Of a DNA stretch of 64,000 nucleotides, positions 1 to 6,000 are shown one piece after another. The position numbers are program-made. Source of the DNA: Escherichia coli (GTDB lineage: Bacteria; Pseudomonadota; Gammaproteobacteria; Enterobacterales; Enterobacteriaceae); NCBI RefSeq assembly GCF_003334405.1, contig NZ_QOWM01000009.1. One strand, 5' to 3'. Numbering within the stretch: position 1 is the first letter of the stretch; the number at the start of each line of letters is the position of its first letter.

Positions 1-3000
1 GATTCTGGTTTATACCGTCAATAAACCCCAGCGCGCAGCAGAGTTGCTGCGCTGGGGTGTGGATTGCATCTGTACCGATGCGATTGACGTGATTGGTCCG
101 AACTTTACGGCCCAATAGTTTTCAACGGAATGTCAGGCTGCGGCGTGCTGGGCTGATTCAGCATGTCGCCGTTTCTCCTCTCCGGCAGCATATGCTGCTG
201 ATTCAACGAACTATCCGGATTACGGTTGCTGTTTAACATCCCGCCGTTGGTGTTGGGCAGCATTTGCTGCCGGGCGGGATTTCGCTCCCCCGGCTGTGAC
301 TGCAACACCCGCTGAGAATTATTGTTTATCTGGTTTTCTAAATGCTGCTGTTGCAACTGAGTTTGCGTTTTCAGTTGCTGATTCAGCATCCCTTTTTGCT
401 GGATTTGCTGAGTCTGCATCTGGGTTTGCATCCGCTGCTGGCTGGGTATCTGATACCCCGGCTGGTTAGGGTTGTTCAGAGTATTAATGGGCTGTGCAAA
501 GCCGACAAACGGCAGGAGTGCCGTAAGAATCAGAAGTCGTTTCATCGCGTATCCTCCTCTGAAGATATCCTTTAAGTTTACTCGCTTCCCGACAAAACGA
601 TGATTAATTCAGAGTTATATACCAGGCTTAGCTGGGGTTGCCCCTTAATCTCTGGAGAATAACGATGATAAAACCGACGTTTTTACGCCGGGTGGCCATT
701 GCTGCTCTGCTCTCAGGAAGTTGTTTTAGCGCCGCCGCCGCGCCTCCTGCGCCGCCCGTCTCGTATGGTGTGGAGGAAGATGTCTTCCACCCGGTACGCG
801 CGAAACAGGGAATGGTAGCGTCTGTGGACGCCACTGCCACTCAGGTGGGGGTGGATATTCTCAAGGAGGGCGGGAATGCCGTTGATGCCGCCGTGGCGGT
901 GGGCTACGCGCTGGCGGTAACGCATCCGCAGGCAGGGAATCTGGGCGGTGGTGGTTTTATGTTAATCCGCTCGAAAAATGGCAATACCACGGCTATCGAT
1001 TTCCGCGAAATGGCACCCGCCAAAGCGACCCGCGATATGTTCCTCGATGATCAGGGCAACCCGGACAGCAAAAAATCACTCACTTCGCATCTGGCTTCCG
1101 GCACACCGGGTACGGTAGCAGGTTTCTCGCTGGCGCTGGATAAATACGGCACCATGCCGCTGAACAAAGTCGTGCAGCCCGCGTTTAAACTGGCACGCGA
1201 TGGTTTTATCGTTAACGACGCGCTGGCTGACGATCTCAAAACCTACGGTAGCGAAGTGTTGCCGAATCACGAAAACAGTAAAGCTATCTTCTGGAAAGAG
1301 GGCGAGCCGCTGAAAAAGGGCGACACGCTGGTGCAGGCGAACCTGGCAAAGAGCCTGGAGATGATTGCTGAAAACGGCCCGGACGAATTCTATAAAGGCA
1401 CGATTGCGGAACAGATCGCCCAGGAGATGCAGAAAAACGGTGGCTTGATCACTAAAGAAGATTTAGCAGCCTATAAAGCGGTCGAACGCACTCCGATAAG
1501 CGGCGATTATCGCGGGTATCAGGTTTACTCCATGCCACCGCCATCCTCCGGCGGGATCCATATCGTACAAATCCTCAATATTCTGGAAAACTTCGATATG
1601 AAGAAATACGGCTTTGGCAGCGCCGATGCGATGCAAATCATGGCAGAAGCGGAGAAATACGCCTACGCCGACCGCTCGGAATATCTTGGCGACCCGGATT
1701 TTGTCAAAGTACCGTGGCAGGCGCTGACCAATAAAGCCTATGCCAAATCTATTGCCGATCAAATTGATATCAATAAAGCGAAGCCATCCAGCGAAATTCG
1801 CCCCGGCAAGCTTGCGCCTTATGAGAGTAATCAAACTACCCATTACTCAGTGGTGGATAAAGATGGTAACGCGGTGGCGGTGACCTATACGCTGAACACC
1901 ACCTTCGGTACGGGCATTGTCGCGGGCGAGAGCGGTATTCTGCTTAATAACCAGATGGATGATTTCTCCGCCAAACCGGGCGTACCGAACGTTTACGGGC
2001 TGGTGGGCGGTGATGCCAACGCCGTCGGGCCGAACAAACGCCCGCTGTCGTCGATGTCGCCGACCATTGTGGTGAAAGACGGTAAAACCTGGCTGGTTAC
2101 CGGTAGCCCAGGCGGTAGCCGGATCATCACTACAGTGCTGCAAATGGTGGTGAATAGCATCGATTATGGCTTGAACGTCGCCGAAGCGACCAATGCGCCG
2201 CGTTTCCACCATCAGTGGTTGCCGGACGAGCTGCGTGTCGAAAAAGGGTTTAGCCCGGATACGCTCAAGCTGCTGGAAGCAAAAGGTCAGAAAGTGGCGC
2301 TGAAAGAGGCGATGGGCAGTACACAAAGCATTATGGTTGGGCCGGACGGTGAGTTGTACGGCGCATCCGACCCGCGCTCGGTGGATGATTTAACGGCGGG
2401 GTACTAAGGTTAGCGGCCCTCTTCGTGGGAAGAGGGCTATTTTGTCAGGGCAAGCCGAAGGTAGCCTTTTTTATTTCGTAATCCTGTAGATATTCTTCCA
2501 GCGGTTTTGCCGTTCCCAGAGAATGAATTTCACCACTGTCTTTATCAATAATAAAAGGTGCGTTACCAGCTAAGCGCGCAGCCTCATCTCCAGTTTCGAG
2601 AAATTCTCGTGCTTCGAAACAGAAATACCAGCCCTGGCTAAAGCGTCCATGTAGAGTAATGACGACCGGGAGATCTGCATCATCAAGGTAATGGTTCGCT
2701 TTCGCGAATGCGTCGTGATAAGTAATCATAATTATAATAAATATTATTGTTGAGTGTTATATTATTATTCCTGTGTGATACATTGAGCAAAGACGCGTTC
2801 ATCTTCGTCAAAGATATTATTAAATGCTGGTTTTGAAAAAAGTTCATCGGATAAGATATAGTCACGAAATAAGTATCTGCTAATATTTTATGATTTCTTT
2901 TTCAGAACGTCGAACGGGATTTTCTTATTTAAGATATCAGAATCTTATGATTCGGGTAAAATTCTAAATAAATCAACATGTCATTAAAATCATCATAGCC

Positions 3001-6000
3001 ATTAGCTATTTCGGCTAAAATAGAGACTACATGTCTTCGGTCCATCTCACTTAAGGAGTGTAGTTCCGTTGTAAGTTTTTCCATAGCTTGCACTGCTAAA
3101 TTTCGAACAAGGAATTTTCTGCTGGTAATCTCTAAAAAGATGGCATGGTTTACAATGATTTTTGTTTCCTTTTGATTATTATGAACAACTGTCCATGATT
3201 TCGTTTAAGAATGAAGAGAAATCACTAAACGAACTGAATATATTTTCTGTGCCAATATTATCTCTAATTTCAAAAAAGTTACTTTTAATGTCATAAGTAA
3301 ATATTGAAATGCTATAATCCCCGATCACTAACCGTTCTTGTAGATCAGGGTTTATGAAATCATCATTATTTCTATAAAATTCATTTACGGCAAAAAGGTT
3401 TTTAACTGAAGGTTCTGGAATCGAGAGGCTAAATAATCGTAATCCATTAACTTCGAATCCATCCATTGCTCTTAAAAAAGTAAGATAATCAGGTTGATTC
3501 TTAAAAAGAATACTAACTTCATTACATAACTTCTCCAGGCAATTAGTTGAATTAGAATTAAATTCTATTTGGATTATACTTTCAATAAATGATTCCTTGA
3601 GCGGTGCTTCAAATGGATAGTCTAAATCATTCATCATTTTTATTAATTTATTTATTTGGGTTTTAGTCATCATTTTGTGTGGTCCATAATATTTTTCATG
3701 GGAGGATAAATTGAGCCAGATGGAATGGCCCAGGGAGTGATTTTGCTTTCACCTACTAATATTCCCTTAGCTATTCGTGATTGCATGTTAGTAAAAACTT
3801 TATGATATGGTTCGTTTTCGATTAATACTAAATTTTCGAAATCATTAGTACCACCATCATCTAGAGATAGTTTATGGTGAACATTATAATTTAGAGGAAC
3901 ATTGCCCTTTCTCATTCTTAAAAGGTCTTCGGCGTTGAATCTTCCAGATGCTTCGGAGGTTTTTGCAAGTTTGATAAGAAAATTTTTTCTTACAGTTTTA
4001 TTAAACTCCTTTCGTAAGTTAGCTAAGTCTTTTGAAGGTCTCTTAATGTATATTATTTCTATTATGTCTATACCATCAAGAAGTTTTTGTTGACCTCTAA
4101 GTTTGCCTAAGTAACTATTTATTTCTGTATATGTATCAACATTAGAACGCTTTGTTAAAAGAATAGATGCTGTTGCTATCGCTATGCCCGCTGTTTTTTC
4201 ATTTAGTATTTGATCATAGCCTTTTATTGCATCTCCACCCAGTTTTTCCGCAGTATCTCTGAATCCTTCAATGTTCCCATTGTATACGCCACCAGCAGCA
4301 AGTAGCCTGCCAATAGCTTTGCTGTTTAACGTTTTGAAACGATTATTTGTTTGGTTTTTTGAATTTGGTAAAAACAAACGGTTATAATTTTCAGGGAGTG
4401 CCAAATAGCTGAACTCGGTATTTGCGATAAGATGTTGACAGAGGATAAATTCATAACTAATAGTTATTGTTTCTGTATCCAGTTGGTTTTCAATGATCTG
4501 GTGATGAATAGCCGATAAAAAAGCGCCTCTTAGTTGTATATAATAATACTTTTCCAATCTACCAAATCTATTTATTCGATAGAAGTCAAATCCCATAAAT
4601 AATTGTTCATTATTGTTAATGGAATTAATAAATAATGGAGTGCTTTTATCAATTAATTTACAAAATGTTATACCATGGAACTGTGAACCAAGCCCCGTAT
4701 TATTAATATTATTTAAGAGTGAGAATGTAAATATTTCATCCTCATGCCCGCTCTGCCAACGATTACCTGTAGACTCAGAAGTCCCACAACCTGCGGAGAT
4801 GCTTCCTTGTTGTTCTCCCGTTACTGTCAGGTAAACAATATTACTCATCCCTGAAAAGTCCTTTTATGGCATGCTATTTTATCAATGGCAATATTATGCT
4901 TGTTAATTGTTATTTATTTACTCCAGGAAATTGTAGGCGTATATATTAAAAAATAAAATATTACACTTTAGGAAGTAATTATGAGTTAAATCTCAATATA
5001 TGTATTGGGCAAATAAATACCTTAAAGGAAGGTATGTCGATTTTGAATGACACCCTTTTTCCATCTCAGAAAAAGGGCACTATCTTACTTCACCCGCGCC
5101 ATATAATATGCATCGACATATTCACCATTACGCAATGCGTACTTCTTACCAGTCCCTTCAATTTCAAAGCCGTATTTTTTATAGACCTTAATTGCCGGGG
5201 CGTTATCGACAAACACGGTTAGTTCAATGCGATCTACCCGCAACCAGTTGTCGCACATTTCAATCATCTCTCGCATCAGGGCGCTGGCGACGCCGCGGTT
5301 CTTCCAACGAGAGTCGACACAGATACCAAAATCGGCAACATGACTGCGGCGTGGGCGCTGTTGCACGTCAATGGTGAGATGGCCCACGACGTCTCCATCA
5401 ATACAGGCGACGAGTTGCTTGATGCCGGGACGATCGGCGAGTCGCTCCTGCCACATATGATCGGAAGGATGAGGCACCTGTAGTGTGTTGCAATACACCT
5501 CCGGCTGGGCGTGAATCTGCCTGATGGCCTCGTAATCCCGTGTTTCTGCGTGGCGTATTACTATCTCACTCATTCCTTTGTCCTCTTTGGGGTAAATGTC
5601 CCTTTCAACATCATTGACTTTCAAATGCGAGTCAAATGCATTTTTTTGCAAAAAGTGTTGGACAAGTGCGAATGAGAATGATTATTATTGTCTCGCGATC
5701 AGGAAGACCCTCGCGGAGAACCTGAAAGCACGACATTGCTCACATTGCTTCCAGTATTACTTAGCCAGCCGGGTGCTGGCTTTTTTTTTGATCTTTCGTT
5801 CTCAATTTATCCACGGGAGTGCTTGTGTTCGTTATGCGCACTCCAGTAGGAACCACGTCCGCTTTGCGCTAAGGTGTAAATAACCACCTTAAAAAGGACG
5901 AAATCATGGTCATCAACTGCGCCTTTATTGGCTTCGGCAAAAGCACCACCCGTTACCATCTGCCGTATGTACTTAACCGCAAGGATAGCTGGCATGTCGC

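Follow-up and report, generated by a model that had tools for sequence, protein, structure and literature searches.

Orphan CT/immunity modules are said to have been described downstream of cdiA and rhs genes by Poole et al. in 2011. Heterogeneous polyimmunity loci are established (Zhang et al. 2012, PMC3482391). According to PMC6730261, orphan immunity genes are kept after T6SS effector-immunity replacement in V. cholerae (Kirchberger et al. 2017), and E. coli Hcp-ET loci likewise retain orphan immunity genes (Ma et al. 2017). Among the Hcp toxins, Hcp-ET1 is an HNH-DNase (PMC6730261) and Hcp-ET5/ETi5 is a papain-like Hcp toxin with its immunity protein (PMC6099711); the immunity family Imm35 has been linked to Tox-PL1 (PMC3482391). 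Here we analyzed the yrhA–yrhB intergenic gap of a 64-kb stretch of E. coli DNA, hereafter the window. Two pseudogene relics lie in tandem in this gap and are unrelated to each other (hhalign probability between the two families, 0.6%). The gap very probably represents the decaying central part of a short, heterogeneous poly-immunity array located downstream of yhhZ, which encodes an Hcp-HNH toxin. The annotated gene yrhD is the tail of one of the relics; a relic of this kind is ordinary, but its recognition alters the annotation of a K-12 gene.

In the window the gene order is ggt, yrhB, yrhD, yrhA and yhhZ, and yhhZ, yrhA, relic 1, relic 2 and yrhB are all encoded on the minus strand (Table 1). 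Of 5426 complete E. coli genomes, 3810 carry the region, and K-12 strains have it with 100% identity. Residues 1–147 of YhhZ, for which the RefSeq name is tssD, match NCBIfam TIGR03344 (E = 3.8e-34). The yrhA gene, which overlaps the stop codon of yhhZ by 4 nt, matches NCBIfam NF038335 (YrhA family; E = 1.7e-35) and has a pN/pS of 0.12–0.57; its K-12 counterpart is interrupted by an IS1E insertion, according to PMC12428005. The product of yrhB matches Pfam PF15567 (E = 4.6e-23), and the G+C content of this gene is ~46%, whereas the remainder of the island has ~30%.

Table 1. Features of the yhhZ–yrhB region (positions in the window)
Feature	Position	Strand	Description
yhhZ	3670..4848	-	Hcp with C-terminal HNH-type toxin (Hcp-ET1 type); primary toxin of the locus
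yrhA	3179..3673	-	Presumed cognate immunity gene of yhhZ; intact here
Promoter-like TAGAGA-18-TATATT	3237..3266	-	Inside yrhA (3' part), 5' of relic 1; from a consensus scan
Relic 1	about 2929..3174	-	Degraded copy of an unnamed 80–84-aa family (YrhD-like)
yrhD ORF	2929..3084	-	51 codons; RefSeq WP_001307436.1
Junction TAAAT	2927..2931	-	Stop of relic 1 directly adjoins the former relic 2 start
Relic 2	2768..2926	-	Degraded copy of an unnamed 85–88-aa immunity family (imm85)
yrhB	2445..2729	-	Intact orphan immunity gene, Pfam Imm35
Terminator-like hairpin	2415..2438	+	Between convergent ggt and yrhB

A first-pass annotation, made from the sequence alone, had described ~450 bp of AT-rich DNA between yrhA and yrhB, without an ORF of 60 aa or more, and had read a 51-codon ORF in it either as a remnant of a toxin/immunity cassette or as the annotated small gene yrhD. 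The gap (2730–3178) indeed measures 449 bp, with 30.7% G+C, and the coordinates and peptide given for the 51-codon ORF (MEKLTTELHSLSEMDRRHVVSILAEIANGYDDFNDMLIYLEFYPNHKILIS) were correct. No ORF of at least 60 aa lies wholly inside the gap, but a 60-aa GTG ORF at 2683–2865 overlaps the start of yrhB. The 51-codon ORF had also been said to lack a good ribosome-binding site, and direct reading of the sequence found no Shine-Dalgarno-like sequence 5' of its ATG.

Taken by itself, the ORF in the gap is not beyond chance expectation: the longest stop-free run is 82 codons, a length reached by 6.4% of 5000 dinucleotide-preserving shuffles (p = 0.064). Promoter-like matches at the level of shuffled sequence, and large protein searches that returned no outside homologues, would also suit the view that the ORF and its similarities are chance products of AT-rich, H-NS-bound spacer DNA. 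This view is refuted by profile scans over the six-frame translation of the whole window (2256 segments). The gap held the only significant match of each of two independent profiles (E = 3.7e-14 and E = 1.2e-12), and these matches are colinear, with the order expected from the Citrobacter locus. It is homology, not ORF length, that exceeds chance. Neither relic family showed a significant match among Pfam, NCBIfam or PDB sequences, the AlphaFold models of the two families were of low confidence (pLDDT 63 and 60), and no Rfam family reached threshold in the gap.

At first, homologues outside the locus seemed to be absent, the outcome that the first-pass annotation had named as speaking against a cassette remnant; they lay just below the search thresholds and surfaced through synteny and tblastn against plasmids. 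The plasmid searches detected copies of the YrhD-like family in Rahnella, with 42% identity (E = 5e-5), and in Pantoea dispersa, with 35% identity (E = 7e-3). A profile of the YrhD-like family built from three homologues had a sole match in the window (segment w_2932_3204_-, E = 3.7e-14, 50 bits), to which the family aligns from end to end (alignment A6), and it also matched all six E. coli alleles with the region, from five RefSeq genomes and one MAG contaminant contig. The frame of relic 1 is uninterrupted between 3204 and the stop codon at 2929–2931. The conserved N-terminal segment of the family (KIIxxxAIFLEF) is present in frame 5' of yrhD without a canonical start, the stretch from the preceding stop (3205–3207) to a GTG at 3093 being free of ATG, GTG and TTG. 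The yrhD ORF begins at an internal Met, within the A-V-x-M-M-E stretch of the family, and comprises the terminal 51 codons of relic 1 (C-terminal ~60%). These data support the remnant and the annotated-yrhD readings as both true at once.

The protein accession of yrhD in RefSeq, its intact frame, at least 99% identical in ~2700 complete genomes, and the RpoD-binding, promoter-like site 5' of it would all be expected of a genuine functional gene for a 51-aa protein, perhaps one that reused the tail of an earlier gene, with the family similarity incidental to its present role. Moreover, 68 copies of yrhD with zero substitutions are given in a 2012 pan-genome study (PMC3575317). However, the latter result is expected if gene callers report the intact clonal allele only, and the near-invariance of the frame fits recent common ancestry, with which function is also compatible. 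Alleles below 99% identity occur in 1075 of 3803 genomes. All four alleles fetched at 93–96% identity were disrupted, with start loss (ATG to ATA) and independent stops (TTA to TAA, TAT to TAG), and all are RefSeq pseudogenes; yrhD is therefore not intact across the species. Furthermore, nearly every yrhD substitution that separates lineages is non-synonymous (the four most divergent alleles have 0–1 synonymous and 4–9 non-synonymous differences, and the closest has 0 and 1). With 1–10 substitutions per comparison, pN/pS was 2.3 or undefined, and purifying selection on yrhD codons was not seen at these small counts; the same comparisons gave 0.02–0.13 for yhhY, 0.02–0.06 for ggt and 0.07–0.35 for yrhB. 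The 51-aa product is devoid of the most conserved segment of its family, and in this form it has no homologues outside E. coli, very large protein searches having returned E. coli copies alone. Among papers with yrhD in the main text, the passages covered contain no report of its translation by profiling or proteomics. We thus regard a functional 51-aa YrhD as improbable.

It could alternatively be supposed that relic 1 works as a gene of ~80 aa, either from a non-canonical ATC/ATT start at the K-I-I codons or through coupling or frameshifting with yrhA. Its frame is open across the whole family domain in the present lineage, direct reading of AAGGAAACAAAAATCATT places a Shine-Dalgarno-like AAGGA 7–10 nt 5' of the ATC/ATT, and rare database ORFs (P0004, P0005) join YrhA to the relic 1 frame. 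The AAGGA is not conserved, however, and reads AAGATA or AAGGTA in other lineages; the fusion ORFs are read-assembly singletons, each of which needs a 1-nt indel. The part of relic 1 upstream of yrhD has a pN/pS of 0.8–0.9, and two other E. coli lineages carry in-frame stop codons within the relic. A working gene of this length is consequently very unlikely, and we retain the interpretation of relic 1 as a pseudogene.

What the family of relic 1 does is suggested by its gene neighborhood. In P. dispersa, a YrhD-like gene ends a CdiA array with a TNT toxin/Imm63, PT-VENN fragments, an endonuclease and a colicin-immunity gene; in a CdiA locus of Ralstonia, it is flanked by Imm30 and Imm33-like genes; in Rahnella, it is located 3' of VENN-containing CdiA fragments, a deaminase-like tip and a small partner gene; and in Pantoea BRR-3P, a copy that is itself broken by a stop follows CdiA and an immunity gene. 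On this ground alone, the family may be predicted to have an immunity role. In none of the 10 contexts examined, a small sample, did a YrhD-like gene directly follow a toxin tip; it follows another small gene or stands alone. Copies were also found outside recognizable toxin loci (P. dispersa VWJL.P1 and YSD_J2, and Streptomyces, Paracoccus and Deinococcus), so that the role of the family may be a different one.

Relic 2 covers positions 2–52 of the 86 in the imm85 profile. It was detected by tblastn with an 85-aa protein of C. freundii (19/53 identities, E = 3e-9), and it shares 49% identity with the copy of Citrobacter sp. FP75 (E = 5e-13) and 47% with that of C. youngae (E = 1e-12). In the window, the best match of the imm85 profile was relic 2 (E = 1.4e-6) and the next was the adjacent colinear segment; when joined, they scored 44.8 bits (E = 1.2e-12). 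The former start codon is now AAT (2927–2929). An in-frame TAA at 2888–2890 is confined to the present lineage, other E. coli lineages having CAA. The relic ends in TAA TAA (2762–2767), with ~100 bp of the 3' part deleted according to DNA alignment, and has lost the most conserved C-terminal third of the family. Its pN/pS falls below 1 in some comparisons (0.23–0.62). Intact relatives occupy the corresponding position in Citrobacter: in C. freundii, imm85 lies between yrhA and yrhB, and in C. youngae between yrhA and a winged-helix-like gene, with no yrhB. No counterpart of relic 1 was found between yrhA and imm85 in Citrobacter.

Citrobacter sp. FP75 has, at the orthologous locus flanking ggt, an imm85 gene that begins 1 nt after an Hcp-ET gene, the tip of which is homologous to the Rhs tip linked to imm85; in Budvicia and a second contig, imm85 begins 1 nt after that orphan Rhs toxin tip. 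An immunity role for imm85 is thus a well-supported prediction from gene order and homology. The junction of the two E. coli relics is 2 nt shorter than the intact toxin-stop/imm85-start junctions (TAAAATG, TAGAATG), which accounts for both the lost ATG of relic 2 and the frame shift between the relics. The stop of yrhD is placed exactly as the toxin stop at those junctions (TAA-A-ATG in Budvicia, TAG-A-ATG in FP75), and its segment is an open frame without a start codon, as expected of a 5'-truncated gene. Both features would agree with the segment being what is left, at the 3' end, of a toxin tip (orphan CT) that formerly lay before imm85 and was displaced. Against this, a toxin-tip profile (FP75, Budvicia and two other contigs) had no match in the segment or in the whole window, tblastn was also negative, and the alignment of the segment extends over the full length of free-standing genes of 80–84 aa, each with a start and a stop codon of its own. 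The possibility of a toxin-tip remnant is largely refuted and hardly to be entertained. The cassette remnant of the first-pass annotation accordingly stands as two immunity-type relics identified by profile, and not in its toxin part, since the search of the gap with the profile of the imm85-cognate tip and with tblastn revealed no toxin-tip relic.

The relics can be placed in a history of exchange at this locus. E. coli YhhZ and the Hcp of E. fergusonii have ~230 N-terminal residues in common and then different toxin tips, and at the equivalent locus of E. fergusonii an Hcp-Gln_amidase gene is directly followed by yrhB. In Pectobacterium, a YrhB homologue follows a CdiA-Gln_amidase toxin. The yrhB gene is left over from a displaced Hcp-papain-like (Gln_amidase) toxin. 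Three alternative pairs, HNH/yrhA, a tip with an HxH-x7-S-xx-D motif/imm85, and Gln_amidase/yrhB, thus occur at one chromosomal site in relatives. We propose that the Hcp toxin tip has been exchanged repeatedly together with its immunity gene, and that every swap would shift the older immunity genes downstream as orphans. These would be retained only while competitors still carry the matching toxin; yrhB would still be kept, and the two middle genes, relics 1 and 2, would have drifted neutrally.

As to transcription, TAGAGA-18-TATATT is a candidate promoter by consensus match, which is no proof of function, and promoter-like consensus matches are at the level of shuffled sequence. For yrhD, an RpoD genomic SELEX table gives identical hexamers and notes H-NS binding (PMC3946193). 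No minus-strand terminator-like site was predicted between yrhA and yrhB. We infer that yhhZ, yrhA, the relics and yrhB probably share a transcript, and that the relics probably yield no functional protein.

The locus can be compared with each of the described systems. Intact relatives of both relics reside in orphan arrays of the cdiA/rhs type, namely among Rhs orphans in Budvicia and CdiA orphans in Pantoea, Rahnella and Ralstonia; in contrast, the E. coli gap has no surviving toxin-tip fragment, and the carrier is Hcp rather than CdiA or Rhs. The locus resembles Hcp-ET5/ETi5 in that YrhB belongs to Pfam Imm35 and its gene directly follows Hcp-Gln_amidase (papain fold) in E. fergusonii, but E. 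coli keeps only the immunity gene and the toxin half is gone. Like T6SS orphan immunity genes, the E. coli orphans lie on the same strand downstream of an active toxin/immunity pair, are homologous to immunity genes that adjoin toxins in other strains or species, and belong to one locus with alternative tips on a conserved N-terminal carrier. They differ in that two of the three orphans are not intact, a stage of decay rather than of retained protection, and in that one is now annotated as a real protein-coding gene. Compared with polyimmunity loci, the E. coli array is short (four genes, two of them dead) and is attached to a toxin gene instead of being free-standing, and two of its families are not in Pfam or NCBIfam. 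It nevertheless shares with those loci a tandem, same-strand arrangement of small unrelated genes (YrhA family, YrhD-like, imm85 and Imm35) and a content that varies among close relatives.

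On the minus strand, the gene order is yhhZ, yrhA, a 51-codon ORF and yrhB, the last of which is convergent with ggt (see table). The gap between yrhA and yrhB (2730–3178) comprises 449 bp with a G+C content of 30.7%, and lies within an island of approximately 30% G+C that extends roughly from 2700 to 5080. The first-pass annotation had placed a 51-codon ORF in this AT-rich gap and regarded it as either the relic of an additional toxin/immunity cassette or the annotated small gene yrhD; the ORF is located as described and is yrhD in RefSeq. Of the 5426 complete E. coli genomes compared, 3810 contained a 501-bp segment surrounding yrhD, which was 100% identical among K-12 derivatives, and the yrhD region was wholly missing from approximately 1600 of the 5426. 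The bare ORF is unremarkable, because a stop-free run of at least 82 codons was reached in 6.4% of dinucleotide-preserving shuffles of the gap, and open-frame length was rejected as coding evidence (p = 0.064). No terminator-like site was found between yrhA and yrhB, the sole such site nearby being the ggt/yrhB convergent hairpin (2415–2438), and co-transcription across the gap appears probable. A promoter-like TAGAGA-18-TATATT sequence is the same site that was assigned to yrhD in an RpoD SELEX study, in which H-NS binding was also noted. An Rfam scan returned only sub-threshold snoRNA-like matches in AT-rich DNA; one of these, to the plant snoRNA family snoR69Y (3283–3379, minus strand, inside yrhA), scored 31 bits where the gathering score is 45 and is almost certainly AT-rich noise.

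Locations of features in the window and at comparison loci (L numbers denote loci or contigs from other genomes)
Feature	Location	Strand	Remark
yhhZ	3670-4848	-	Hcp domain and C-terminal HNH-type toxin
promoter-like TAGAGA-18-TATATT	3266-3237	-	listed for yrhD in RpoD SELEX study
yrhA	3179-3673	-	first gene after yhhZ
51-codon ORF	2929-3084	-	RefSeq yrhD, WP_001307436.1
yrhB	2445-2729	-	Pfam Imm35, E=4.6e-23
ggt		+	convergent with yrhB
orphan Rhs tips with shared ~150-aa domain	L010:4977-5999 (Budvicia aquatica); L012:1-588
Citrobacter 83-90 aa gene	L009:6290-6562; L018:7855-8106; L024:7982-8245
Citrobacter 294-309 aa protein	L009:2812-3741; L018:4843-5727; L024:4846-5730

The yrhD frame is open upstream as far as a stop codon at 3205–3207. 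When this 91-aa frame was compared with plasmid records by tblastn, a check that the first-pass annotation had proposed for the shorter peptide, hypothetical proteins were detected on megaplasmids, one in Rahnella aquatilis (42% identity, E=5e-5) and the other in Pantoea dispersa (35%, E=7e-3). Both are products of free-standing genes of 82–84 aa, and their alignment with the E. coli frame extends from “KIIVNHAIFLEI” through the final residues. A profile of three homologues matched exactly one window segment (2932–3204, minus strand; E=3.7e-14) and also recovered every E. coli allele tested. In the alignment, the annotated ATG of yrhD corresponds to an internal Met of this YrhD-like family, and the conserved N-terminal family segment lies in frame upstream, with no ATG, GTG or TTG before a GTG at 3093. 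We therefore suggest that yrhD is best regarded, in K-12 (b4612) as elsewhere, as a pseudogene fragment, which is probably not translated.

Neither a word-indexed search of 5.8 billion protein clusters nor a full HMMER scan of 1.84 billion representatives, each run with the concatenated translation of the gap, retrieved anything besides E. coli copies and assembly artefacts; the true homologues score 40–47 bits, under the thresholds of both searches. From these searches alone, the gap would seem to be devoid of homologues outside this locus, the outcome that the first-pass annotation had set against a relic; the Rahnella and Pantoea proteins show otherwise. Scans of Pfam, NCBIfam and PDB sequences returned nothing for yrhD, the extended frame, the reconstructed relic or either of the two families discussed here. 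A representative-genome scan with the Hcp domain yielded only 11 loci, which were the source of the key Citrobacter loci and among which no YrhD-like sequence was present outside E. coli. Distant blastn with a 250-bp segment detected no paralogues of the yrhD segment below 90% identity in E. coli genomes. AlphaFold2 models of the extended YrhD frame (pLDDT 63) and of imm85, the second family (pLDDT 60), were of low confidence, and Foldseek gave no PDB match with E <0.09 for them; no fold is claimed.

Some database entries join the yrhD frame to other sequence. In L005:1-780, on a 1431-bp JGI metagenome contig, an unrelated 146-aa ORF, with a HicB-like start and a single predicted membrane helix, is joined in frame to that of yrhD, a few nt past the stop of yrhA. 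Since the first 532 nt of this contig matched in 0 of 5426 complete E. coli genomes, it was left out as a possible chimera; the other reading, besides an assembly chimera, is a rare alternative cassette replacing yhhZ-yrhA. In the predicted proteins P0004, P0005 and P0007–P0011 (198–247 aa), YrhA is fused to the yrhD frame by 1-nt indels, or else by internal deletions, close to the stop of yrhA. All are singletons; most derive from read-level assemblies, and sequencing errors or rare variants probably account for them.

Four contexts of YrhD-like genes are CdiA-linked arrays. In P. dispersa, the gene closes a CdiA array in which TNT/Imm63, PT-VENN fragments and SymE genes occur along with an endonuclease and a colicin-immunity gene; the Ralstonia copy, in a CdiA locus, is flanked by Imm30 and Imm33-like genes; the Rahnella copy comes after fragments that contain VENN and a deaminase-like tip (C-terminal toxin domain) with a small partner; and in Pantoea BRR-3P, CdiA and its immunity gene precede a copy that is broken by a stop codon. 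No recognisable toxin locus surrounds the copies in two further P. dispersa strains, Streptomyces, Paracoccus and Deinococcus. Because no toxin tip immediately precedes any of the copies examined, we infer an immunity role for this family from gene neighbourhood only.

Directly past the yrhD stop, in a different frame, a C. freundii 85-aa protein aligned at 2926–2768 (19/53 identities, E=3e-9). This second relic showed 49% identity to the copy in Citrobacter sp. FP75 (E=5e-13) and 47% to that in C. youngae (E=1e-12). With an imm85 profile made from 14 members of the family, the best match among the 2256 six-frame segments of the whole 64-kb window was 2768–2887 (E=1.4e-6) and the second was the neighbouring colinear segment. 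Joined over a lineage-specific TAA, the relic scored 44.8 bits (E=1.2e-12, profile positions 2–52 of 86); this TAA lies at 2888–2890 in the window allele, where five other E. coli alleles read CAA. The junction reads TAAAT-AAG in E. coli, as against TAAAATGAAA or TAGAATGAAA at intact loci, indicating that the ATG was lost and the frame shifted. The relic terminates at two stop codons past position ~54, and approximately 100 bp of the 3′ part are absent relative to Citrobacter. By eye, the yrhD frame had resembled a second, tandemly duplicated imm85 copy. This idea was rejected, as the frame scored −0.6 bits with the imm85 profile, DNA self-similarity was absent and hhalign gave a probability of 0.6%; the two families are unrelated. 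A toxin-tip relic was sought in the gap and rejected, as none was found. Of the cassette remnant proposed at first pass, the immunity portion is supported, by two unrelated relics, and the toxin portion is not.

The start of imm85 lies 1 nt past an orphan Rhs toxin tip in Budvicia and one further contig, and 1 nt past an Hcp-ET (Hcp fused to a toxin) in Citrobacter sp. FP75, the tip of this Hcp-ET being a homologue of that Rhs tip. Elsewhere, then, the imm85 family behaves as an immunity gene, as judged from this placement. Two identical 121-aa imm85 paralogues (profile score 132 bits) were observed in the same Rhs orphan array of Budvicia aquatica (L010:3846-4211 and 6988-7353), and the family is accordingly multi-copy within one locus. 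The toxin C-terminal domain common to the FP75 Hcp-ET (L018:6001-7254) and the orphan Rhs tips is approximately 150 aa in length, has no Pfam match and carries the motif HxH-x7-S-xx-D, which on our own reading of the alignment may be called JAMM-like. The FP75 Hcp gene contains an in-frame stop at 6244–6246. The motif-bearing tip falls outside the five published Hcp-ET clans, namely HNH, DUF2235, pyocin S3, colicin DNase as well as papain-like (PMC6099711).

The same chromosomal site carries other cassettes in relatives. The C. freundii locus consists of Hcp-HNH, a YrhA homologue, the 85-aa gene, a YrhB homologue, a 90-aa gene and ggt. At the same ggt-flanking site of E. fergusonii, yrhB comes directly after an Hcp-Gln_amidase gene, whose Hcp matches E. 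coli YhhZ over the first ~230 residues and diverges after, which is the signature of toxin-tip replacement. In Pectobacterium, a YrhB homologue (70% identical) lies directly past a CdiA toxin with a Gln_amidase (papain-fold) domain at its end. Three alternative pairs occur at the one site in relatives (HNH/yrhA, motif-bearing tip/imm85 and Gln_amidase/yrhB), and the downstream order yrhA, imm85, yrhB is constant wherever the genes co-occur. The G+C content of yrhB is approximately 46% (2445–2729), whereas that of the remaining island (2730–5080) is approximately 30%, which suggests that yrhB came from another source or at another time than the yhhZ-yrhA-relic block.

Further variation was observed at this site. 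A Citrobacter gene of 83–90 aa past yrhB (or imm85), with weak winged-helix-like matches and not present in E. coli, may be a fourth orphan in the array. Citrobacter also carries a secreted-looking protein of 294–309 aa between yhhY and Hcp-ET, with a weak PA3715-family match under the NCBIfam cut-off and no counterpart in the E. coli window. In E. coli ET650 (L004:6030-6875), IS1 occupies the place of yhhZ, yrhA and both relics, and yrhB adjoins yhhY; in K-12, yrhA is interrupted by IS1E, and in the window it is intact. The locus has been reshaped by IS1 more than once. In E. coli SF-166 (L003:3471-4649), yhhZ/tssD is an annotated pseudogene (internal stop) and yrhA is intact, indicating that in this lineage a toxin can decay earlier than its immunity gene. 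Between yhhY and ggt, the E. coli variants L015:4403-5339 and L016 have nothing but a YrhB variant of 112 aa (86% identical) and lack Hcp-ET, yrhA and the relics.

Selection was compared in six alleles aligned without indels across the gap, with the window allele as reference. Constraint on the 51 yrhD codons is relaxed: these showed 0–1 synonymous and 1–9 non-synonymous differences (pN/pS 2.3 or undefined), and in the same comparisons pN/pS was 0.02–0.13 for yhhY, 0.02–0.06 for ggt, 0.07–0.35 for yrhB and 0.12–0.57 for yrhA. This evidence is supportive and not conclusive, because the substitution counts are small. Lesions of yrhD comprise ATG→ATA and TTA→TAA in the 93% identity alleles and TAT→TAG in the 96% alleles, and all four of these alleles are flagged as pseudogenes by RefSeq; alleles below 99% identity occur in 1075 of 3803 genomes. 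A 2012 pan-genome paper reported a YrhD cluster of 68 identical members (PMC3575317), as would be expected if gene callers report the intact clonal allele only.

As a whole, these data are best explained by an exchange of Hcp toxin tips at this locus, each together with its immunity gene; in E. coli, the two middle genes have decayed, with yrhB still constrained. Both homologies, the lesions, the synteny and the relaxed constraint are observed, and the sequence of the exchanges is inferred from them. Taken together, we consider it somewhat likely that the YrhD-like (80–84 aa) and imm85 (85–88 aa) proteins are two undescribed immunity families; that imm85 neutralises an undescribed HxH-x7-S-xx-D (JAMM-like) toxin domain delivered by Rhs and by a sixth Hcp-ET class; that K-12 yrhD (b4612, P58037) is a mis-annotated pseudogene fragment; and that the yhhZ locus preserves, in legible order, the traces of three or four successive tip replacements at the least. 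What is new here is modest: a pair of as yet unnamed families of immunity type, together with a class of Hcp-ET toxin beyond the five published clans. These families and the unnamed toxin domain are leads for specialists in T6SS, Rhs and CDI. An ORF of the K-12 reference, listed as an “uncharacterized protein” for two decades, is now explained, which argues for annotation of yrhD as a pseudogene fragment and against its pursuit as a small protein. One chromosomal site in E. coli, E. fergusonii and several Citrobacter species holds the same ordered cassettes in active, orphaned or decayed form, providing a compact, datable case of polymorphic-toxin loci shedding immunity genes. Current understanding is not overturned, since the established model fits: in that model, successive effector-immunity additions displace older toxins and keep their immunity genes (PMC6730261), and the yhhZ locus conforms both to such retention and to the concept of a “heterogeneous polyimmunity locus” (PMC3482391).
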